DNA of 64,000 nucleotides, from the sequence record OR770614.1; one strand, written 5' to 3'. The notes under the pieces were generated by a model. That model was not told the origin of the DNA. It saw only the letters and a list, made by a program, of their open reading frames with translations, and did not search any database. Both the position numbers and the translations under genes were made by a program. Below are positions 958-60,974 of this stretch, piece by piece. Source of the DNA: Staphylococcus phage vB_StaM_PB50. Numbering within the stretch: the first letter of the stretch is position 1; every line of letters starts with the position of its first letter.

Positions 958-2268
958 TTATTTGAATAAATCCATAATACGTTTATTATTGTTATCTATT
1001 GGTTTTTGTTGTTGACCAAATATAGAATTACTCATATCATTTCCTTCAATAACACTATTGATACGTTTAATTGAAGCAATATCTTTTCTTCTAGCTTCCT
1101 GTTCTTTTTTCATTCCTTCTGCATTTTCACTGTTAGGTGAGAGTTTAGAACCATATTTAACTTTTACAAATTTATTAATATCCTTTTCATAATAATATGC
1201 ATATAAACAGAATAAATAAGACATCATTAAGTCGTCATGGCCACCTGGTGGATGGTCAATACGTCCTTTAATCATTTGTAACGATTTAATTTCTTGGAAA
1301 AGTGGTTTATTATTAATTAAATGTGGTTTTTCTTCAACAAGCATAGATAATATTTCATTTAACATTATATCACGAGATTTTTTAGTTGTATCAATACCAT
1401 ATCTACGAGTTTCTTTTTTAACTTTTTCAGTTTTACTATATCTAGACATTTCATTAAATAAACTTTTATTTTCTACTTGCTTTTCAGCTACACGAGTTTT
1501 AAGCGTATAGAATAAATTAGATTCTAAACCATCATAAGTTATCATATGATCAATTACTGTTAAACCTGCATAGTTACGTTCAGGTATTAATATAGCGTTA
1601 GGTATATAGAAACCAACCAATTCTTTAATTAATTTTCTGAATGTAGGTCCATTAATTACATTATTTTTAAAAGTCATTACTGGTTCCAAAGTAGCTGGAT
1701 CCACTACAGTAAACGCTGTATTATCTCGTCCTAAACCACCAGACATATCAATACCAATAAGCCAATTTTTCTCTGTAATATTATCCATATATTTAATCAT
1801 ATTTACATAATAAGTTCTACCATCAATATTAAATTCAAGAGTATTATATATTTCTTTATTAGCATACATAGATATTTCAGTCATTTGTTCTTCAGAGAAT
1901 AATGAATCATCAGAACTATAAGCCCATTCCAATAATATCTCACGTTTAACTGCTTCTAAAGAACCAATTTGTCTTTTTTGTTTTTCTAACCAATCTTCAT
2001 CTTTACCTAATTCTTTATATGAATATTCTATATACATGAATTCATTATTTGAATTATCTTCCATGTATTTTTCTAATTTAGAATTTCCTTCTTCTTCACT
2101 ATCAATAAAATAATCATATATTTTTTCATTCCATTGAGCTGCTTCATTCATTTGTTGAAAGAAAAATTGCCCTTGAGATGTGTCGAGAGTTGAAGGGGTT
2201 GTGGTGATAAGGAGTCCATAGGGAGAACCGTTTTCTTTTGCAATTCTAGAAGCTGTACTTATTGCTGG
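958..2268 (-). CDS. terL: terminase large subunit, 3' exon (ATPase motif III + nuclease domain)
   Basis: ORF 958-2151; frame stays open upstream to 2268 encoding ...NGSPYGLLITTTPSTLD (T4 gp17 IIITTTPNG-like motif III); body has DxSGGxGxDxTA nuclease-domain pattern. Confidence 0.7.
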   Translation of the reverse strand, partial: PAISTASRIAKENGSPYGLLITTTPSTLDTSQGQFFFQQMNEAAQWNEKIYDYFIDSEEEGNSKLEKYMEDNSNNEFMYIEYSYKELGKDEDWLEKQKRQIGSLEAVKREILLEWAYSSDDSLFSEEQMTEISMYANKEIYNTLEFNIDGRTYYVNMIKYMDNITEKNWLIGIDMSGGLGRDNTAFTVVDPATLEPVMTFKNNVINGPTFRKLIKELVGFYIPNAILIPERNYAGLTVIDHMITYDGLESNLFYTLKTRVAEKQVENKSLFNEMSRYSKTEKVKKETRRYGIDTTKKSRDIMLNEILSMLVEEKPHLINNKPLFQEIKSLQMIKGRIDHPPGGHDDLMMSYLFCLYAYYYEKDINKFVKVKYGSKLSPNSENAEGMKKEQEARRKDIASIKRINSVIEGNDMSNSIFGQQQKPIDNNNKRIMDLFK

Positions 2269-2417
2269 TCATTTATGTTAGCTGCATGGATTATCATGCA
2301 GATCAGACTATATCATAATCTTTTTAAGATTTAATAAATTTAGTCGTTGAACATTATTTAATGATGCTGATTGGTTTTTAAACTTTTCAGCAGTTAATAT
2401 TATTCATCATCTATATT
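2269..2417 (-). mobile_element. group I intron (ORF-less ribozyme core) in terL
   Basis: Minus-strand P/Q/R/S elements TTAACTGCTGAAAAG, AATCAGCATC, GTTCAACGACTAAAT, AAGAT-TATGATATAGTCTG plus P9-like hairpin CTGCATGATAATCCATGCAG; boundaries approximate. Confidence 0.55.
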
Positions 2418-2500
2418 TCTATAAAGATGGAGCCTTTTTACTCATTGCTTCAAACATTACTTGATTATGTGGTATAAACGCCCACTCATCAAGCCAAACC
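2418..2500 (-). CDS. terL: terminase large subunit, internal mini-exon (Walker B)
   Basis: Short coding island between ribozyme cores translating PMVWLDEWAFIPHNQVMFEAMSKKAPSL, matching T4 gp17 MIYIEDCAFIPNF Walker B region; boundaries approximate. Confidence 0.5.
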
Positions 2501-3885
2501 ATAGGTCATTTACGTTAAACTGCATGGATTATCATGCAGATCAGACTATATCATAATTTTAATAATTTTTTCATAGGGATAATTAATTCTTCATTTATTC
2601 TATTCTGATAAGGGAGACGTATCATATTTATTCCTTTACTTCTTATAAATTTATCTTTTTCATTATCTAATTTTTTTATATCTTCAAGAGTTCTTGTGCG
2701 TTTATTTCTTTTATCATTAATAAAAGTTCCATAACCTTTTATATGTCCTTTTCCATCTACTTCAACTACAGTATTTATTTTTTTAAAATAAAAATCAAAT
2801 CTAAAACTAGATCCTTCAAAAGTAACTTCATTCTCATATTCTATATTATTCTCTTGAAGAAATTCAATAATGGCAATTTCTCCTATACTTTTAGAGCATA
2901 CACTACATCTTTTTCTTTTAAGTATATCATCTGGTCTTGTTTTAAATTTGTGTCCACAATCATTACTCTTCAAATAGATATAATCTTTGCTTCTAGTATA
3001 TTCAGTTAACACATTAAATTTATTATATCCAAATATCATATCTAATTCACCTTGAAACTCTTCTGTTGTCTTTTTAGATAATTCTTGACTATCTAATATG
3101 ATATAATTTTCATCATTTATACATCTATTACAGTTTACTGAATTATACTTCTTTCTTTTATCCATTAGAGTAGAAGGCTTTGCAAAATATCTTATATTTC
3201 CACATTTTCCACAACGGAATCTACACTTTTTATTCATTCCATTGAATCCTTCAATATAAGTATAATTAAATCCGAACTTATCTTTTAATTCTATTAAAAA
3301 AGTTTCTTTACCTTTAGAATTCTTGGGTTTTTCTGAATATCTACAATCTTTTCTATTACAGAATTTTCTCTTTAATCTTAATTTTTCAGTAGGTAAGAAA
3401 AAATCTCTATCACATATATTACAATGACATTTAATTGGTTCTTTAGAATTTTTATACTCTCCCAGTATTTCAAATTTATCTCCATTAATATCTTTTATTT
3501 CTTTAAAAGTTTTATTTCTCTGTTCTATGAATTTTTCTTTACTTTTAACACCTTTAGGCATTTTATCCCTCCGTTATCGTACTGATAAAAGAATGTTAAC
3601 AGTAAAAATTATTAAAATTGATTTTATTTAGTCGTTGAACACTAATTAAAGTGATGCTGATTAACTTCATTATTAGTCTTCCAGCAATTAAAAATCTTTA
3701 TGCACTGCATCTACATACGGTGCTACCTCTTCCTGCTTTGTTTGCCGTAATACATTGTATGATATTCATACACACTAGACTATATCTTATAATATTAATT
3801 ATCTCTATATTTAGTCGTTGAACAATCAATTTGATTGATGCTGATTGGTTTAGTATCTTTTTCAGCAGTTAATAGAGTTTAATGA
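2501..3885 (-). mobile_element. group I intron(s) in terL with two ribozyme core copies and a homing endonuclease ORF
   Basis: Core copy A (P,Q,R,S at ~3870-3775) then copy B (P,Q,R at ~3700-3620), ORF 3561-2551, then S element TATGATATAGTCTG and hairpin at ~2545-2505; either tandem introns or a twintron. Confidence 0.5.
2551..3561 (-). CDS. intron-encoded homing endonuclease, Cys-rich Zn-ribbon repeats + Vsr/DUF559-like PD-(D/E)xK domain
   Basis: 336 aa; repeated C..C...C..C/H modules; C-terminus TVVEVDGKGH...D..R...G..MIRLPY resembles EDxHD/Vsr-like nuclease (I-Bth0305I type); located inside intron. Confidence 0.5.
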   Translation of the reverse strand: MPKGVKSKEKFIEQRNKTFKEIKDINGDKFEILGEYKNSKEPIKCHCNICDRDFFLPTEKLRLKRKFCNRKDCRYSEKPKNSKGKETFLIELKDKFGFNYTYIEGFNGMNKKCRFRCGKCGNIRYFAKPSTLMDKRKKYNSVNCNRCINDENYIILDSQELSKKTTEEFQGELDMIFGYNKFNVLTEYTRSKDYIYLKSNDCGHKFKTRPDDILKRKRCSVCSKSIGEIAIIEFLQENNIEYENEVTFEGSSFRFDFYFKKINTVVEVDGKGHIKGYGTFINDKRNKRTRTLEDIKKLDNEKDKFIRSKGINMIRLPYQNRINEELIIPMKKLLKL

Positions 3886-4531
3886 GAGCACGTATTTTAC
3901 TCTCAGCATTTGTTGGAGGTGATACTGTTTTTATTGTGTTGTTATTACTTGCTAAAGAAAATTCATTAATTTTGTCTCTATCATTTTTATCACCAAAGTT
4001 AGCTAATACATAATCCGGTAAACATTTCTCTTTGAATAGATTTTTTAATCGTTTAAGGTTTTCAGTAGTGTCCGAGTACGATTTATGTGTAAATAACATT
4101 GTATAGTTATTACCTACCAATAACATAATCCATGAATAATAACATACTGCAGAATATGTTTTATAGTGCTGACGAGGTAACATTATTGCAGTATCTAAAT
4201 TATGCAACATACAAAAAGTCATAGCTAAATTACCTCTATGAAGTTCATACATTACTTTTCCACCCGGAACCGGAACTCTGATAACTTCTCTTAAATAAAA
4301 CCATATATTAAGTTTAGCTTCCCTAATAACACGTGTTTTCATTTCATTATCTAGATCTTCATCCCAAGGATCAACACCAATTAATTTCTTATCATATAGA
4401 GTTAATGGCAATCCATAATTTTGTATATTATTATCTTTAAGTTCTTTAGCAACTTTTAAAAAGCTTACATTATTAGTTTTATAATCGTAATAAATTTTTT
4501 TCTTTAATTTTGTTATAGCCATAGTCTTCAT
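3886..4531 (-). CDS. terL: terminase large subunit, 5' exon (Walker A ATPase region)
   Basis: ORF 3869-4531; LPRQHYKTYS Walker-A-like and alignment to T4 gp17 suggests exon ends near ...AESKIR (~3886), last ORF residues being intronic. Confidence 0.65.
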
Positions 4532-10486: not shown

Positions 10487-10709
10487 ATGTCTAAAGATAT
10501 TAAAGCTTACATTATTAATGAATCTAATACAACTTCTCAACCAGAAGTAGTTCAAGATAATAACAAATCAGTTAGATTCATTGCTGAATTACAAGAAGCT
10601 GATAGACAAAACCGTAATGGTCGTGTTTATCGTAAAGATGTTATACAAAGTGGATTAGATAGTCCAGTAGTACAAGAAAAATTAGCAAGAAGAACTTTTT
10701 ATGGTGAGT
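10487..10709 (+). CDS. prohead protease, exon 1
   Basis: ORF 10487-10714; exon end set by P1 pairing GGUGAGU with intron GCUCAC; NGRVYRKDV... prohead-protease-like. Confidence 0.5.
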
Positions 10710-10876
10710 TTTAGGTTAAAATGGCTCACGTTAAATTATATTAATTGCTGAAATCTTATTTAAAGTAATCAGCATCAACTTAATACAAGTTGTTCAACGA
10801 CTAAATATATAACTTAATTTAATTAAGAAGATATAGTCTAATCTATATAAAATATAAATATAGATAATATAAGCAG
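10710..10876 (+). mobile_element. group I intron, ORF-less (~170 nt)
   Basis: P AATTGCTGAAA, Q AATCAGCATC, R GTTCAACGACTAAAT, S AAGATATAGTCTAA, P9 hairpin ATCTATAT...ATATAGAT, terminal G ~10876. Confidence 0.6.
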
Positions 10877-11139
10877 GTCATCCTTTAAGTGATGAACCTA
10901 AACGTCAAATGTATATTGATCAACGTAATATTTCTCATATTATCACTAGAACTTGGTGGAATGGTAATAAATTAATGGGAGAAGTAGAAACAGCTCAAAC
11001 AGCAGCTGGTAAAGATATGAAAGGTTTAATTGGACAAAAGTCTGATGTATCCTTCTCAATGCGTGGTTTTAGTAAAATAGAAAGAAAACCTAATGGTGAA
11101 GTAGAAGTTACTAAACCTTTAAGATTAATCTGTTACGAT
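10877..11139 (+). CDS. prohead protease, exon 2
   Basis: Open frame ...HPLSDEPKRQMYIDQRNISHII... (ORF 10909-11145 plus upstream extension); 3' boundary approximate. Confidence 0.45.
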
Positions 11140-11322
11140 AAATAACTCTGTCGCTTCTTAAAGCAATTTAAGTCGAATAATATTATTAATTGCTGAAAAG
11201 AATTCATTAAATTAATCAGCATCCTCAAAAAGAGGTTCAACGACTAAATATAATATACTTAATTTATTAAGTAATGATATAGTCTAGTCTATATGAAATT
11301 CATATAGTTAATATAAACGTGG
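11140..11322 (+). mobile_element. group I intron, ORF-less (~180 nt)
   Basis: AATTGCTGAAAAG, AATCAGCATC, GTTCAACGACTAAAT, AATGATATAGTCTAG, hairpin CTATATGA...CATATAG; frame reopens at 11323. Confidence 0.55.
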
Positions 11323-11673
11323 GTAGTAATTCCATCACATCAAGATTCTTATATCCAAAATATAATTTCAGAGAATCATAATAATTACAATACTAGTGAT
11401 TTACAAATGGTTAATGAATCAATTGATATGTTTTCTAACGGTAAAGTTACAGAATTTTCTCCTAGAGAAGTTTTAACTTATATTAAAGAAAATTCAGACA
11501 ATATCAAATATATCGCTGAAGATATGGGATTTGATAAAGCTGATGAATCTAATATCATTTACGATAAAGGATCTCAATTAGCTTCAATTAAAGAAAGTAA
11601 TAAAACTATTAAAGTTTTCTTAGAAGAATCTGTTCTTAATGGACTTGATGATTTCTATAGAAACTTTAAATAA
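11323..11673 (+). CDS. prohead protease, exon 3
   Basis: ORF 11407-11673 with in-frame stop-free extension back to 11323 (VVIPSHQDSYIQ...). Confidence 0.45.
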   Translation, partial: VVIPSHQDSYIQNIISENHNNYNTSDLQMVNESIDMFSNGKVTEFSPREVLTYIKENSDNIKYIAEDMGFDKADESNIIYDKGSQLASIKESNKTIKVFLEESVLNGLDDFYRNFK

Positions 11674-21503: not shown

Positions 21504-24500
21504 TTGATTAGTATTCTAGATAAAGAACGTAAAAGAATTGAAGGTAAATTAGTTGCAGAAACTTTTGAAAATGTAATCTCTAGTGAGAAATTAGTATATG
21601 ATTTTAGTAAGAAAACTGAAATTATTGATATTGAATTCAAAAGTAAAAACTACATTTCAGAAAATACACATATAATTATTAAAGATGAAAGTAAGAATGA
21701 TTCTGAATTTGTTTGTATCGAAGAAAATGGTTTAAAATCTTCGTTAATTCCTGCTTATGTAAAAGATTTAAATAATGTCTTTATGAATTCTAATGAAGAA
21801 TTAAATGGACAATTAAAATCAGTATTAAGCACTTTATTATTGAATACAGGATATAATATTGAGTATAATGATTTAGTCGTTGATGAAGAAATTACTTTAT
21901 CTAAAAATAATAAATCTGTATTTGAAAAATTATTGGATATTGTATTTGAAAAAGATCTGTCTATTAGACATAAGTATGATATTAATACAAATGAAAGAAC
22001 TTTAATAATTAATAAAGGTAAAGATTTAAGAAAATCTAATCCTAAAGAAGTTTCTGGTAGAATTCCTGGTTTTGAATTTAATGTAGATAAATCAAATATT
22101 AAAACTGGTTTAATCATGTATAATGATAATAATGAATCTATTACTGTTAAAGACTCATTAAACCAAGCTAGATTTATTAAAGATGAAAATTATATATTTG
22201 ACACTATGGAAGTTAAAGGGAAAACTAGAGATGAAATGGAAGAGATTGCTTCTAAATACCTTAATGACAGTTCTTTGAATGCTATAGATTTAAAAATGAC
22301 TGGTTTAGTATTAAGAAATTGGACTAACTGTCATTATAATAAATTTATATCAAGTCAAATATTCATCAATTATAAAAATATAAAACCTGAGCTAACAGCA
22401 GGTTTCCAAATATATAAATTAGAGAGAAGTTTATTCGATTATAATATAGAGAAATTTAACTTCTTTGCTAAGCATAAAGATTCTAATGAAGTTTATAAAC
22501 CTGAAATGTTAGAGAATTATACTAAATACGCTAATGATAACATCTTTATTAAAGACAATACATCTTCTAAAAGTAATGATGTTAAATTAGTTGAATCTTT
22601 AGTTAATAAACAATTAGAGTCATTTAAAAATTATATTAATGATATTAGCAATAATAAAAATAGTGGTACAGATGGATCAAGTGTATTACAATCAAATAAA
22701 GAACTTAACTTTGATGCTATTATTTCTGATTTTAATTTAATTAAATCTCAAAAAGATCAAGTTGTTAACCAATTAAAATCTATATTTGATTCAGCTTATC
22801 TTAAAGAAGATGCAATTAAAATTCAGGTTAGAGATAAAATTAAAGAAATTAATAATGACTTTGATAAAATAAAATCTGAAGTCAATAAACTTAATAGAGC
22901 TGATCAGAATGAATCATTAATGAAAGATATTAATAAATCATTTGTAGGATTTTATTCTGTAGTTAATAGCACTAAAAGTATTATTGAATTATCTAATGAA
23001 GCTATTAACTTAGAAATGAATAAACTTCAAAATGAATATTCTCATGGTATTAAAGATACTGTATTTTCTGAAATTGGAAGAGTTTTAGGATTATCATATG
23101 ATAGTAAAACTCAAAAATTAACAGGAAATATCAATGTAACTGAGGATATCAATGAAGTAAAAACTTCTTTAGAATTAATGAGAGTAAAAGTTAATAGAAT
23201 TGAAAATGATCTTAATGACTCTGATAGAGGATTGAAAGAAAATTTAATTCGATTAACAGAAAATCTATCAAATGTACTAGGCTTACCTATTAACTCTGAA
23301 TCTGGTTTAATAGATGGAGCTATAGATAATCAAGATACGTTTGATCTTATCCAAAAACAGATTCAAAAAACTAAAGATGAAATTGCTGAATCTAAAGTTA
23401 ACTTAGAAAATACTAAAACAGAATTAGAAAAACAACAAGAAGAATTAGACCAAAAATCTAAAGATATAGATAAAGCTATGGCTGAAGCTAATAGGGTTAG
23501 AGAAGATTTAGGTCAAGAATTAGAAGTTTCTCAAAAAGAGTTTAATTACTATATGGATTCTCGTGGAGATAACTTAATTTTTAATGGTAATGCAGATCAA
23601 GGAGATGAATCAAATTTCCCTGGAATGTATTACGATAATTCAGATGCCTTTCAATCAGCAGCTTCATTTAGAATAGAAGGATTTAACTCTATTGTTTCTT
23701 CTGAAAGATTAATACCGATTAATCCAGAGAAGACATACAAACTTTCTATGTTTATGAAGAATAACAATTCTCTTCCTTCTTCTATAGGTCATTTAAGTTA
23801 TGATAAAGATGGACAATTAATAGAATCTCAACATGTAATGGGTAGTGAAAAACCTGTAATTGAATTAGCTCAAGAATTAAGACAAGGAGATAAAGTTATT
23901 TATTTCAATAGTCTTGATGGTCTTGATGATACTTATAGATTCCAGTCTGCTCCGTTAGATGAAGAAGATGACACTCCTGTTTATGATTATGATAGAGATG
24001 GATCAGTTGTATTACCTAGTGATGCAGATGATATTCTTTCTATAGATGATCCTAATGCCATTCCTGATGAAGAAGAAGACACTATAATATATGCAGAGGA
24101 CACGCCTGAAGAAGATAAAACTACAGAACCTGATGTTCCTATGCCTGATTCTGATGAGCCGGTTGAAACTAATTCAACTCCAGTAGATGAAGAAGAAGCT
24201 ATTAAGAATATGACTAATAATTATAATGTGTCTAATGCTGGAATTGTTAATAGAAATATTAATCCTAATTTAACGGATTATAACGATAATCATTCATTAG
24301 TTATTTGGAATTTCAAGAGTAATGATGGATATAATTATGGTGAATCTACTTATTCTAGAAATGTATTCATGAATGGTTGGGATTATGGTGCTATTGATAG
24401 AGAAAATAATTGTATTTATCTTAATAGACCTTTTGATTTAATTAATTATGATTCTGAAGATGGAGGTTTCCCTGCTGGAACTAAAGTTTCAGGAACATTC

Positions 24501-57943: not shown

Positions 57944-58133
57944 TAGCTTTAATATCTACATTTTTTGATTTAGGATTATTTAATAAATAAACAGCTATTT
58001 GTGAGTCTTTATTAAGTGAGTAAGTTCTATTAAACAATCCATCATTATATGAAATTAATTGGTTTACTGGATCTTGTACTTTTAATTGTTCGTATTGTTC
58101 TTCTGAAAATAGTGCTATGATATTTAAAGTATC
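57936..58133 (-). CDS. RNA polymerase beta-prime-like N-terminal fragment, exon 2
   Basis: DTLNIIALFSEEQYEQLKVQDPVNQLISYNDG aligns with beta-prime [33 protein letters not shown] directly after NADFDGD; begins right after intron terminal G at 58134. Confidence 0.55.
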   Translation of the reverse strand, partial: DTLNIIALFSEEQYEQLKVQDPVNQLISYNDGLFNRTYSLNKDSQIAVYLLNNPKSKNVDIKASE

Positions 58134-59861
58134 CATTTATCTTAACCTACATTTAATATATAGGATGAGACTATATCTTATGGTTTCCCATTTATATATT
58201 TAGTCGTTGAACCTTATAATTAGGATGCTGATTAGTTTCAAACTGTCCCAGCAATTAATATGATTTATTGAAGGCAATAAATCAATAAATTTTATAATTC
58301 ATTAAAATATTTCCGCTATTCCAAATTCGATAAACACCCGATTGTTTTTTAGGAAAATCTGAGTATTCCATGTTTTCATTAATGTAATTTGGAAAGTATT
58401 CTGGTATAATAGATTTTTCAAATTCATGAACTGAATAAATATTTCTTTTAAAAATTATTTTACATGTAGATTTTAATTCTTTAACATAATTAAAACCAAA
58501 ATCTTTGAAATATTTACCATCAGAATAATCTTTATTTATTATTAAATCTATTGTTTTTATATTGTTTCTTTTGAAATATTTAATTGAATTACTTAATAAT
58601 TTAAATAAACCACCATTTACAATTGTTTTATTACTAAAAGCAAATTTTTCTAATTTAACTTTATTCTTATTTATATAATTATATGACATAATTGCAATTA
58701 TTTCATCATTAATTTTTAATGAAAAATTAATATCATGAGAGGAATTTATATAGGTACTATTATTTTTATAGAAGTTTTTAGCGTCATAATCGTTAATTAT
58801 TTCAAAATTACATTCTCTAGCATTTATTTTCTTTTCTTGAAAATAATCTATAGAATACAATATCCTATTAATTATTAAATCTTTTTTAAACTCGTAATCT
58901 AATGAGTTAATAAAATATATTTCAATATCAAAATTATTTTTAAAAAAATCTTTCTTATGTTTATGATATTCTTTATTTTTCATTTTATCTGAATGATAAT
59001 AGTATCCATTAAATTCAAATCCTATTTTTTTATCTGGAAAGAATAGATCTACTTCATATATTTGATCATTAAAAGAGAATCTTTTGTTATTTAAAATAAT
59101 TCCTTTATATGATTCTTTTATATATTTTATTAATTCAATTTCTTGATTAGATTTAATATTTTTACAAAGAGGACATCTATATCCTTGTTGAAAGTCATTA
59201 ACTCTTACACTATAAATATTACCACATTTTTTATGTTTTATTGGATATTTTTCTTTATTATTGAATTTATAATTTAAATCCAACCATTCATATTCATTAC
59301 CATCTTTAGATTCAGATAATATTTTTATTAAATAATTTTCATCATCTTTATAATAATATTTACCTCTTTTTTTATTTGAACAAAAAGGACATCTTCTTTT
59401 CTTATTTCCCAAAAATAAGCGTGGTTCTACTTTATATTCATTTCCGCATATTTCATGTCTTAATAAAACTTTATCGCTACCATTTTTATTAAAACCTTCT
59501 ATATAAGTATAATCTTTATTTTCTTTTTTAATTTCTTCAAAAAAGTCTTTATCCGATATATTTTTATAATTTCTAGCTTTTTTATTCCCTTCATTTTTAA
59601 AACATTTCGGACATCTTCCTTTTCCTTCATTTAAGAAAATATTACCTTTAGATACTCTATATTCTTCACCACAAATTTTATGTTTTAAAATAAAAGGCTT
59701 TGAAGTTCCCTCATAATTGCTTATTAATTCATAATTATTATTATCTATATTTTTTATTTTGTTTATTACATCTTCTTCTGTTAATTTAGGTGGCATAAAC
59801 TCATCCTTTCAATTAATTATTAAGGAGGTTTATTTAAATTTATTTTTTATTGATAATTTTT
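58134..59861 (-). mobile_element. group I intron with homing endonuclease gene, inserted in beta-prime catalytic motif
   Basis: 5' splice after ...GADYDG (U at 59862); ORF 59796-58282; then P AATTGCTGGGAC, Q AATCAGCATCC, R GTTCAACGACTAAAT, S AAGATATAGTCTC and terminal G. Confidence 0.6.
58282..59796 (-). CDS. intron-encoded endonuclease (Zn-ribbon repeats + DUF559/Vsr-like domain + C-terminal extension)
   Basis: 504 aa; repeated C..C/H..C..C modules as in terL intron ORF; YEVDLFFPDKKIGFEFNGYYYHS nuclease-like segment. Confidence 0.5.
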   Translation of the reverse strand: MPPKLTEEDVINKIKNIDNNNYELISNYEGTSKPFILKHKICGEEYRVSKGNIFLNEGKGRCPKCFKNEGNKKARNYKNISDKDFFEEIKKENKDYTYIEGFNKNGSDKVLLRHEICGNEYKVEPRLFLGNKKRRCPFCSNKKRGKYYYKDDENYLIKILSESKDGNEYEWLDLNYKFNNKEKYPIKHKKCGNIYSVRVNDFQQGYRCPLCKNIKSNQEIELIKYIKESYKGIILNNKRFSFNDQIYEVDLFFPDKKIGFEFNGYYYHSDKMKNKEYHKHKKDFFKNNFDIEIYFINSLDYEFKKDLIINRILYSIDYFQEKKINARECNFEIINDYDAKNFYKNNSTYINSSHDINFSLKINDEIIAIMSYNYINKNKVKLEKFAFSNKTIVNGGLFKLLSNSIKYFKRNNIKTIDLIINKDYSDGKYFKDFGFNYVKELKSTCKIIFKRNIYSVHEFEKSIIPEYFPNYINENMEYSDFPKKQSGVYRIWNSGNILMNYKIY

Positions 59862-60974
59862 ACCATCATAGTCTGCACCCATACCAGCAAGTATATTATT
59901 ACTGATACCTACTACTGATGATTCTATATCTTGAATTATATCTTTAATTTTTAATATTTGAACTGAGCTTTCACTAATACTGGGATTTCTATTTAAAATA
60001 ACTCTCATTCCATTTTCAGTTTTATCAACTAGTTCTCTCATATATTTATATACTTTAGGATTAAATGTATCTAATGCTCTGTCTAATATTTCTTCACCTT
60101 TAGCTAAAGGAATATTTTCTGTTACATACATTAAATTTGCTAAGATAGGTTTATATACTTCTAAGAAGATGGTATAATTTAATCTAATTTCATTTAATTT
60201 AAGGTCAGGTGCTGGAACAATTACTGAACGTGCAGAGAAACCAACACGACTACCCATTAGTAATTTACGAATAGTTCCACCTTTACCTTTAATATTCTCA
60301 TTAATTACACGATCACTAATATTAATACTATCATCTTGAATTTTACTTAATAGATTTAATTTTTGTAACTCTACTGAATCATCTGTATAATGTCTATCAA
60401 GTTCTTTAATACTATTACTATGAGCAATTAATAAATTATAATCTTTATTAATTTCAGAATGTCTAAAAGTTTTAGTAGCTTTATTAACTGTAGCAGGTCT
60501 TAATTTAGGACTAAATACAGTTACATAATTTTGGAATAGTAAATCAGATAAATACCATTGTACTACTCTATTGTAATCTTTAGTTTTACGTTTTTCACGT
60601 TTAACTTCTTCTTTAAGAATTTTTAAGAAATTCTTTCTAAATTCAATTAAACCAATATAAGAGTTATGATCATCTTCAGGTTCAATTACATTACCATTTT
60701 CATCAATAGGTTTTTCAGAACTAATAATTTCTTGGAATCTTTTATTACCAATTAATTTTTTAACACGTTCATAACCTAACGGATTTAAAATATAATTATT
60801 ACCTAAATCTACAATAGCTTCATTAGTAATATTATCTGCTTCTGAATCAGGACCGAAGATTTTCTCACTGAAGATACCATCTTCAGTGAAATCACCTTTC
60901 TTATCAATTGATTCATGATTAGTTACAACTGGAACATTTTCTAAATCCTTTTTCTTGAGTAAAAATCTAACCAT
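59862..60974 (-). CDS. RNA polymerase beta-prime-like N-terminal fragment, exon 1
   Basis: GKGGTIRKLLMGSRVGFSARSVIVPAPDLKLNEIRL matches beta-prime [24 protein letters not shown]; ends ...NILAGMGADYDG (NADFDGD). Confidence 0.65.

Follow-up and report, generated by a model that had tools for sequence, protein, structure and literature searches.

Phage genes split by several group I introns have been described before, and the large terminase gene (terL) of Staphylococcus phage vB_StaM_PB50 appears to be a further example. The window analyzed here is a stretch of 64,000 nucleotides (nt) from PB50 (sequence record OR770614.1), and terL lies on its minus strand. The gene is very probably interrupted by three introns, designated I1, I2, and I3, with a homing endonuclease encoded in I2. 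No paper on phage PB50 was found in the literature. Precedents exist for multi-intron phage genes, for terL introns with Vsr-like endonucleases, and for introns of about 200 nt in jumbo phages. What is new in PB50 is the exon map, a compact intron family missed by Rfam, a mosaic of intron sites, and an unexplained junction at I3.

The Staphylococcus phage Twort has three group I introns in one gene, orf142, with an exon of 23 nt, and this layout permits exon skipping (Landthaler & Shub 1999, as summarized in PMC10136302 and PMC11878797). The host gene in Twort encodes the tail tube protein, while in PB50 it encodes TerL. The Twort introns belong to the IA2 type and are larger, with a length of about 250 nt. 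In PB50 the introns that lack an open reading frame (ORF) are 153 to 171 nt long and have no peripheral domains, and blastn found none of them in Twort-like phages.

The terL genes of the Bastillevirinae are split by two or three group I introns, and exon skipping has been seen in phage SIOphi (PMC11878797). The endonuclease family P559 (phrog_559, classified in CATH as "VSR endonuclease") is found specifically in Bastillevirinae terL introns (PMC11878797). The ORF in the PB50 terL intron also matches phrog_559. However, the Bastillevirinae introns average about 800 nt and were found with standard group I models (PMC11878797), whereas the PB50 introns are much smaller and are invisible to Rfam.

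The prototype of the EDxHD homing endonucleases is I-Bth0305I, which is encoded in a phage group I intron within recA (PMC3239194; PDB 3R3P). It is the best structural match to the PB50 enzyme, in which the spacings of the glutamate, aspartate, acidic, histidine, and aspartate positions are close to those of Vsr. The N-terminal regions differ, with a NUMOD/helix-turn-helix region in I-Bth0305I and zinc-ribbon (treble-clef-like) repeats in PB50. The introns also differ, since the ORF interrupts P5 in the I-Bth0305I intron and P8 in PB50, and the host gene is recA in one case and terL in the other.

Gut jumbo ("Jug") phages have many group I introns of about 200 nt per genome, which split terL and other core genes, and their splicing is supported by metatranscriptomes (PMC12880540). 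PB50 belongs to another lineage and has another host, and the P element of the intron core is AAAAUGCUGG in the Jug phages and UAAUUGCUG in PB50. In the genome paper on MarsHill, Madawaska, and Machias, TerL was described as disrupted by introns, and its mature form "could not be confidently reconstructed" (bioRxiv 10.1101/2020.12.14.422802). In contrast, a full map can now be given, including exons of 29 and 66 nt and a 14-nt exon in MarsHill, because an intact allele is present in phage vB_StaM_SA1. This is the first complete TerL exon map for the Machias/PB50 group of Staphylococcus jumbo phages.

Exon and intron organization of terL

PB50 is a jumbo phage of the AR9-like type, and the region studied is 97% identical to that of Staphylococcus phage Machias. 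The terL gene, which encodes the large terminase used in DNA packaging, extends from 4522 to 958. The start codon may instead be at 4531, and the annotated start in Machias is at the equivalent of 4522. Exon limits were set by tblastn with the uninterrupted 677-amino acid (aa) TerL of SA1 as the reference and by inspection of codons. The features are as follows.

3899..4522, minus strand: terL exon 1, with the Walker A region PRQHYKT and the end ...SPPTNAES (tblastn with SA1 TerL)
3746..3898, minus strand: intron 1 (I1), predicted group I intron of 153 nt without an ORF
3717..3745, minus strand: terL exon 2, a 29-nt micro-exon, GCAAACAAAGCAGGAAGAGGTAGCACCGT, encoding ANKAGRGST(V) and matching SA1 residues 210-219 (ANKAGRGSTV)
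2507..3716, minus strand: intron 2 (I2), predicted group I intron of 1210 nt with the homing endonuclease ORF in its P8 loop
2551..3561, minus strand: homing endonuclease ORF of 336 aa, inside the I2 P8 loop between the R and S elements
2441..2506, minus strand: terL exon 3, a 66-nt micro-exon encoding (V)PMVWLDEWAFIPHNQVMFEAM(R), with Walker B (tblastn)
2270..2440, minus strand: intron 3 (I3), predicted group I intron of 171 nt without an ORF
958..2269, minus strand: terL exon 4, beginning ACCAGCA..., encoding (R)PAISTAS...LITTTPST, the C-motif, and the nuclease domain, and ending with the stop codon

Joining the four exons gives a 2031-nt ORF that encodes a TerL of 676 aa, colinear with SA1 TerL. 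Over residues 10-676 the two proteins are 80% identical, and no gap falls at a junction. Exon 4 is 74% identical to SA1 residues 242-677 (tblastn). The SA1 stretch ...SPPTNAES-ANKAGRGSTV-PMVWLDEWAFIPHNQTMFEAMR-PAVSTAS... is distributed over the four exons in PB50. The spliced protein matches two PHROG terminase families (phrog_32359, E = 7.7e-56; phrog_2, E = 6.5e-39), and in Pfam it has a sub-threshold match to Terminase_6N. After splicing the ATPase motifs are in order (Walker A-like PRQHYKT, Walker B WLDEW, and TTTP), which indicates a large terminase of the T4 type. Over the whole gene, 44 synonymous and 7 non-synonymous codon changes separate PB50 from Machias. A search with a junction-spanning TerL peptide, aimed at spliced transcripts or close relatives lacking the introns, found no spliced form of the gene, only two partial matches.

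A preliminary description of this DNA, made from the letters and the ORFs, had placed the end of the Walker A exon near 3886 and the start of the 3' exon near 2268. These limits are now moved to 3899 for exon 1 (tblastn and codon inspection) and to 2269 for exon 4. The description had also recognized a coding island with the Walker B motif, which is present at 2506..2441 (PMVWLDEWAFIP...), but it took this island to be the only one and missed the 29-nt island at 3745..3717 (ANKAGRGST) between the first two cores. It had proposed tandem introns or a twintron, and the tandem introns are supported. The four exons are colinear with SA1 TerL, in keeping with tandem introns, while the twintron is rejected, as no intron lies inside another and the introns are consecutive and parted by conserved coding exons.

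A variant of the same idea is that everything from 3898 to 2270 is removed as one composite intron or twintron and that the islands are intron sequence that happens to resemble coding sequence. The similarity of the three cores, the nearly identical 3' ends of I2 and I3, and the in-frame joining of exon 2 directly to exon 4 would all agree with this. It is very improbable, since the islands ANKAGRGSTV and PMVWLDEWAFIPHNQ.MFEAM are contiguous in the uninterrupted SA1 TerL, Walker B included. In addition, no core lies within another, and P1, P3-P9, and a terminal G are present separately in every intron. Exon 3 has two substitutions relative to Machias, and both are synonymous.

The GenBank annotation of Machias gives terL as two "terminase large subunit" fragments on either side of a "homing endonuclease". 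Two separate coding sequences are what might be expected if the cores were decayed remnants and TerL were made from separate fragment polypeptides without splicing. This is scarcely credible, because a separate start codon is missing both from the micro-exons and from codons 1-39 of exon 4, where the TTTP motif is encoded, and still their evolution is synonymous. The I1 sequence is 100% identical in PB50 and Machias, and none of the three copies has lost its catalytic core elements.

The arrangement of terL therefore appears to be three consecutive group I introns and two micro-exons and not one intron. It is very likely that these are independent, related, compact self-splicing introns, placed 29 and 66 bases apart in the region of terL that encodes the ATPase motifs. 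Exons as short as 29 nt in PB50 and 14 nt in its relatives are concealed between mini-introns, which standard scans for RNA families do not detect. Gene callers and pipelines that depend on Rfam will therefore annotate such genes wrongly, as fragments.

Evidence for group I ribozymes

The same set of core elements is found in all three introns. The R element, the 14-mer TTCAACGACTAAAT, occurs exactly three times in the region (minus strand, 3822..3809, 3639..3626, and 2351..2338), and every copy is accompanied by its own P element (TAAYTGCTG), Q element (AATCAGCATC), and S element (GATATAGTCT). The whole window has six copies of the R element, compared to 0 expected in 100 shuffles. The preliminary description had seen these three P-Q-R-S cores and had noted that copy A is complete beside the 5' splice site and that copy B is interrupted by the 336-aa ORF. 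Both observations were borne out: copy A lies whole within the 153 nt directly after the site, and in copy B the S element (2554..2543) comes only after the ORF (3561..2551). A match to the R element with one mismatch at 21872 was dropped, as it is ordinary coding sequence and the other elements are absent there.

A secondary structure with P1, P3, P4, P6, P7, P8, and P9 can be drawn for every intron, P5 being very small or absent, and I3 has an extra P2 hairpin. The elements identified on the minus strand are listed here by intron.

I1: internal guide sequence (IGS) 3889..3884; P3 3877..3872 with 3808..3803; P4 3868..3863 with 3843..3839; P6 3837..3823; R 3822..3809; P8 3802..3789; S 3788..3777; P9 3771..3757; omega G 3746
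I2: IGS 3708..3702; P3 3696..3691 with 3625..3620; R 3639..3626; 16-bp P8 stem 3619..3604 with 2570..2555 (the last ORF codons); S 2554..2543; P9 2539..2520; omega G 2507
I3: weak P1 with IGS GCUC 2433..2430; P2 hairpin 2429..2408; P3 2404..2400 with 2337..2333; R 2351..2338; P8 2331..2317; S 2316..2305; P9 2301..2282; omega G 2270

All three introns end in G (I1 ...UUACG at 3746, I2 ...AAAUG at 2507, and I3 ...AAAUG at 2270). The use of G3745 as the I1 terminal G was worked through by hand and rejected, since it would destroy the conserved frame of exons 2 and 3. I1 and I2 have a P1 with a U·G pair at the 5' splice site. The last six bases of exon 1 pair with the IGS of I1 (GAGAGU/GCUCUC), and the corresponding helix in I2 (GCACCGU/GCAGUGC) has one mismatch. 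I3 looks chimeric, with a core like that of I1 (75 of 97 positions identical) and a 3' end like that of I2 (56 of 63 positions identical, in the last 64 nt of I3).

Because Rfam gave no match, the structure was tested directly. An alignment of 41 distinct cores, anchored on the invariant elements, was made from the window, Machias, MarsHill, AH12, LY01, two ENA contigs, and contigs of 200-400 kb in IMG/VR with the same Q/R/S core. The paired positions contain 92.5% paired cells, compared to 73% after shuffling. The covariation score is 0.475, compared to 0.129 in shuffles, and none of 500 shuffles reached it. When the partners were slid by 1-3 columns as a control, pairing fell to 28-47%. Changes on both sides are found in all P3 pairs, all P8 pairs, and four of the five P6 pairs, while P4 has one compensatory GC-to-AU double change, present in 7 sequences. 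A conserved core with the P3-P8/P7 pseudoknot and the P4-P6 domain is found in all three terL copies.

The pairing of P1 also follows the insertion site. Eleven other introns of the family were compared, all from different sites, and every one of them forms a P1 terminated by U·G with the 5' exon beside it, at 5-6 of 6 pairs. P1 is perfect in 7 of the 11, while 5.8% are perfect in cross-pairing controls. P1 pairing thus tracks the intron's own exon, indicating that P1 covaries with the insertion site. Minimum free energy (MFE) folding recovers P1, P4, P6, P7, P8, and P9, with z scores of -2.6 for I1, -4.3 for I3, and -5.1 for I2 with the ORF loop removed. From these features it is concluded that I1, I2, and I3 are predicted to be genuine and unusually compact group I introns. 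A literature search for the smallest group I introns found nothing relevant, so no claim of record size is made.

Several points weigh against three functional introns with a mobile endonuclease. The Rfam model Intron_gpI (RF00028) has zero matches in I1-I3 at the gathering threshold or at E <= 10, and this is read as a limit in the sensitivity of RF00028 for very compact phage introns. Pfam finds no significant nuclease domain in the 336-aa ORF, DUF559 included. I3 breaks the rule of a U at position -1 paired with G, and its P1 has only 4 bp. Splicing of I3 at the canonical sites, after U2440 and after G2270, would give a frameshift and a stop, with the product ending ...EAMSTSNKYSF*. Finally, self-splicing, the target of the endonuclease, and the co-conversion discussed below are deductions, while the exon map, the core with its covariation, the fold of the nuclease domain, and the polymorphism of introns and ORF among relatives are direct results of the analysis.

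The splice junction of I3

The exon sequence suggests that I3 must splice at G2441|A2269 in order to keep the frame, which places the cut a single base before the U·G pair. Homology with the exons of five relatives extends to G2441, the end of the 5' exon, and no further, and it resumes at A2269. Joining these bases restores ATG-AGA-CCA (Met-Arg-Pro), which is conserved in SA1, MarsHill, LY01, and AH12. The only helix of I3 that is closed by a U·G pair is GAGU/GCUC, which is formed in the MFE fold, and the U of this pair, U2440, is where the intron begins. The other five introns of the window and those examined in relatives have U at -1.

The junction is conserved and the sequence after it appears to be translated. 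It is identical in Machias, so that it has been kept in two independently isolated phages. Between PB50 and Machias, all ten codon differences in codons 230-266 are synonymous in the G2441|A2269 frame, showing that the frame downstream of I3 is translated and is under purifying selection. Two other pairs of sites were worked through by hand and rejected. Joining U2444 with G2270 would delete the conserved Met-Arg and has no matching IGS, and joining U2440 with A2269 would need an A in place of the terminal G.

I3 either is cut one base upstream of the wobble pair, or splices imprecisely, or has an exon longer than the homology suggests. The first option, a functional group I intron that begins at the wobble U and follows a 5' exon ending in G, is given slightly less than an even chance. 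If true, this G-ended 5' exon would depart from a rule that is among the most conserved in group I splicing. If confirmed, the junction would be a model for the choice of a group I 5' splice site away from the U·G pair.

Imprecise splicing could make I3 an attenuator of the terminase. In that case most transcripts would be spliced canonically and give the truncated TerL described above, and a minority would be spliced imprecisely and give the full-length protein. The sole U·G-terminated helix and its presence in the MFE fold fit this idea, and alternative splicing with exon skipping is documented for tandem phage group I introns (PMC10136302, PMC11878797). It is considered unlikely, since TerL is an essential protein and Machias, an isolate with this same junction, forms plaques. 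The exon homology also restores the conserved AGA (Arg) codon precisely, and a precedent for such an attenuator was not found.

The longer exon would correspond to an I3 that starts 18 bases downstream, after U2423, with CAUCUUU/AUAGAUG as P1. Both the U at -1 and the terminal G would then be kept, the frame is open through the added codons, and the product would be in frame, with Arg giving way to SKKAPSL, an insertion of seven residues. The helix is found immediately before P3, where other members of the family have their IGS. This start is improbable because the splice-site pair would be U-A beside a U·U mismatch and not U·G, and the helix runs past the proposed site like an ordinary P2 hairpin. 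Furthermore, all relatives have EAMRP without an insertion, and exon homology has already stopped at G2441.

The 5' part of I3 was found by blastn only in PB50 and Machias. The P1-P2 segment of I3 had 0 matches in IMG/VR, and a metagenome scan for I3-type introns gave 59 matches, none of them near intron elements, so these are considered chance matches.

The putative homing endonuclease of I2

The endonuclease ORF has features suggesting that it is translated independently within I2. A Shine-Dalgarno sequence, GGAGGG, is located at 3572..3567, 5 nt 5' of the ATG, and the TGA stop codon overlaps the S element of I2. The ORF is intact in both PB50 and Machias, with 16 synonymous and 9 non-synonymous changes between them and none at catalytic residues. 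It matches phrog_559 in PHROGs with E = 1.7e-37.

The N-terminus contains three cysteine (CxxC) modules resembling zinc ribbons, in agreement with the zinc-ribbon repeats of the preliminary description, and it has a sub-threshold Pfam match to DUF4379, a treble-clef zinc finger. No NUMOD match was found in the N-terminus, which has these modules in place of a NUMOD/helix-turn-helix DNA-binding region. The description had also assigned the C-terminal part to a DUF559/Vsr-like domain and to the EDxHD homing enzymes. The Vsr-like fold and the EDxHD motif are supported, while the Pfam name DUF559 is not, and the DNA-binding module differs from that of I-Bth0305I. Among 37 homologues, Pfam finds DUF2726 in 11, DUF7255 in 7, and DUF559 in 1. 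An exhaustive HMMER search, for which the last 132 aa served as the query, gave 4983 relatives, and the 37 were drawn from these.

Conserved residues and the predicted fold both point to a Vsr-type nuclease. In the alignment of the 37 homologues, G227, E228, D256 (in RFDFY), E267 and G270 (in IEYDG), H273, D299, and K302 are invariant or nearly so, and D269 (in IEYDG) is kept in most. These include a composite E...D...(acidic)...H...D motif (E228, D256, E267, H273, and D299). Vsr has a composite motif of this kind, with catalytic positions E25, D51, the F62 position, H69, and D97 (PMC3239194). The spacings in PB50 are 11 from D to E, 17 from D to H, and 26 from H to D, compared to 11, 18, and 28 in Vsr (PMC3239194).

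An AlphaFold (AF2) model of the C-terminal 140 aa has a pLDDT (predicted local distance difference test) of 87. The top match to this model in Foldseek is the catalytic domain of I-Bth0305I, 3R3P (probability 1.00, E = 2.3e-3, target template modeling score 0.70). It is followed by E. coli Vsr (1VSR/1CW0) and then by PvuRts1I/AbaSI and RAP-domain proteins. At the sequence level, neither phmmer nor profile searches against PDB found I-Bth0305I. The phmmer search with the ORF gave nothing relevant, and the best profile match was a weak one to the Vsr-like AbaSI (E = 0.1). Overall the assignment of the C-terminal domain to the Vsr/EDxHD type holds at the level of modeled fold and motif.

Proposed mechanism of splicing and homing

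The established behavior of group I introns and homing endonucleases (review PMC3984707) suggests how this locus may work. Each transcribed intron would fold into its own P1-P9 ribozyme, bind free guanosine, cut the 5' splice site, and join the exons. The four joined exons would then encode the single 676-aa TerL. When a relative with an intron-less terL allele co-infects the cell, the I2 endonuclease most likely cuts that allele near the I2 site, and recombinational repair would copy I2 into the cut allele. I1 and I3 may be copied along with I2 by co-conversion, because they are 29 and 66 bp from it, within the normal co-conversion distance.

SA1 has such an intron-less site. Its terL segment across the I2 site is …GGTAGTACCGT^TCCAATGGTTTGG…, and the putative target is ACCGT^TCCAATGGT, which corresponds to the spliced PB50 form ACCGTACCTATGGT. 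The SA1 target is a pseudopalindrome at 10 of 14 positions, ACCNTWNNWANGGT. This would suit a dimeric Vsr-like enzyme such as I-Bth0305I, which has a 14-bp pseudopalindromic target, but it could be due to chance.

Exon skipping is plausible in PB50 terL, as in Twort orf142 and SIOphi TerL, because the 3' end is shared by I2 and I3. A direct joining of exon 2 to exon 4 would be in frame, but with the loss of Walker B. The terL locus is a compact natural system for studying how nearly identical tandem ribozymes avoid or use exon skipping, and also how one endonuclease may carry its ORF-less neighbors by co-conversion.

Distribution of introns and probable gene conversion

The terL introns of relatives form a mosaic of insertion sites within the same 200 nt of the gene. 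The sites are given here by the amino acids on either side.

ES^AN: PB50 and Machias (I1)
KAG^RG: MarsHill and LY01, a 127-nt intron without P9 followed by a 14-nt exon; AH12, 206 nt with P9
STV^P (the I2 site): empty in SA1; ORF-less in MarsHill and LY01; ORF-bearing in PB50, Machias, and ENA contigs
AMR^P: only PB50 and Machias (I3)
MRP^A: MarsHill and LY01
TTTP^S: Machias, PALS_2, LY01, and AH12
KKSR^D: LY01

The I2 site is polymorphic for the presence of both the intron and its ORF. The intron at this site in MarsHill and LY01 is 157 nt long, and two ENA contigs (L105 and L107) have one with an ORF that is 75% identical to that of PB50. In a search with I1, blastn found 28 places in Machias, 29 in LY01, 28 in AH12, 11 in Madawaska, and 8 in MarsHill, and none in S6, PALS_2, SA1, or UFV_DC4. 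The same Q/R/S core as in PB50 is also found in IMG/VR contigs of 200-400 kb from uncultured phages (loci L007-L104). Gains and losses of this sort are typical of a mobile intron family, and here the ORF-less mini-copies have expanded markedly.

Gene conversion has probably occurred between I2 and I3. The P9 hairpin (2520..2539 in I2 and 2282..2301 in I3) is a 20-nt perfect palindrome, CTGCATG-ATAATC-CATGCAG. In Machias it is inverted in both introns, giving the loop GATTAT, and apart from the 6 differences due to this inversion, I3 is the same in PB50 and Machias. A concerted change of this kind indicates that the two introns of a genome have undergone gene conversion with each other.

Some of the relatives have further arrangements in terL. 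The 127-nt intron at KAG^RG, the 14-nt micro-exon CGTGGTTCTACTGT, and the I2-site intron follow one another in MarsHill (L003, 3865..4162), in LY01 (L006, 2750..3046), and in L105 and L107. LY01 has five terL introns in all. Machias has a fourth terL intron at TTTP^S (L001, 5408..6931, 1524 nt) that is absent from the PB50 window. It contains a zinc-ribbon ORF of 366 aa and has a more elaborate ribozyme, and PALS_2 has an ORF-bearing intron at the same site.

Other introns of the family in the window

The remaining introns of this family in the window interrupt two other genes. A gene similar to that for the RNA polymerase beta' subunit is split on the minus strand by a group I intron of about 1.7 kb (58134..59861), within the catalytic ...GADYDG|D motif. 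The flanking exons end in GATGGT at 59862 on the 5' side and begin with GATACT at 58133 on the 3' side. The intron encodes an endonuclease-like ORF of 504 aa (59796..58282) with zinc ribbons and a match to phrog_559 (3.8e-60). This ORF occupies the P1 loop, after the 5' splice site and before the guide sequence, and a compact core follows at about 58283..58134. On the plus strand are two ORF-less mini-introns, 10710..10876 (167 nt) and 11140..11319 (180 nt), each with a canonical U·G P1 and a terminal G. They split one gene into three pieces, which correspond to the ORFs at 10487-10714, 10909-11145, and 11407-11673.

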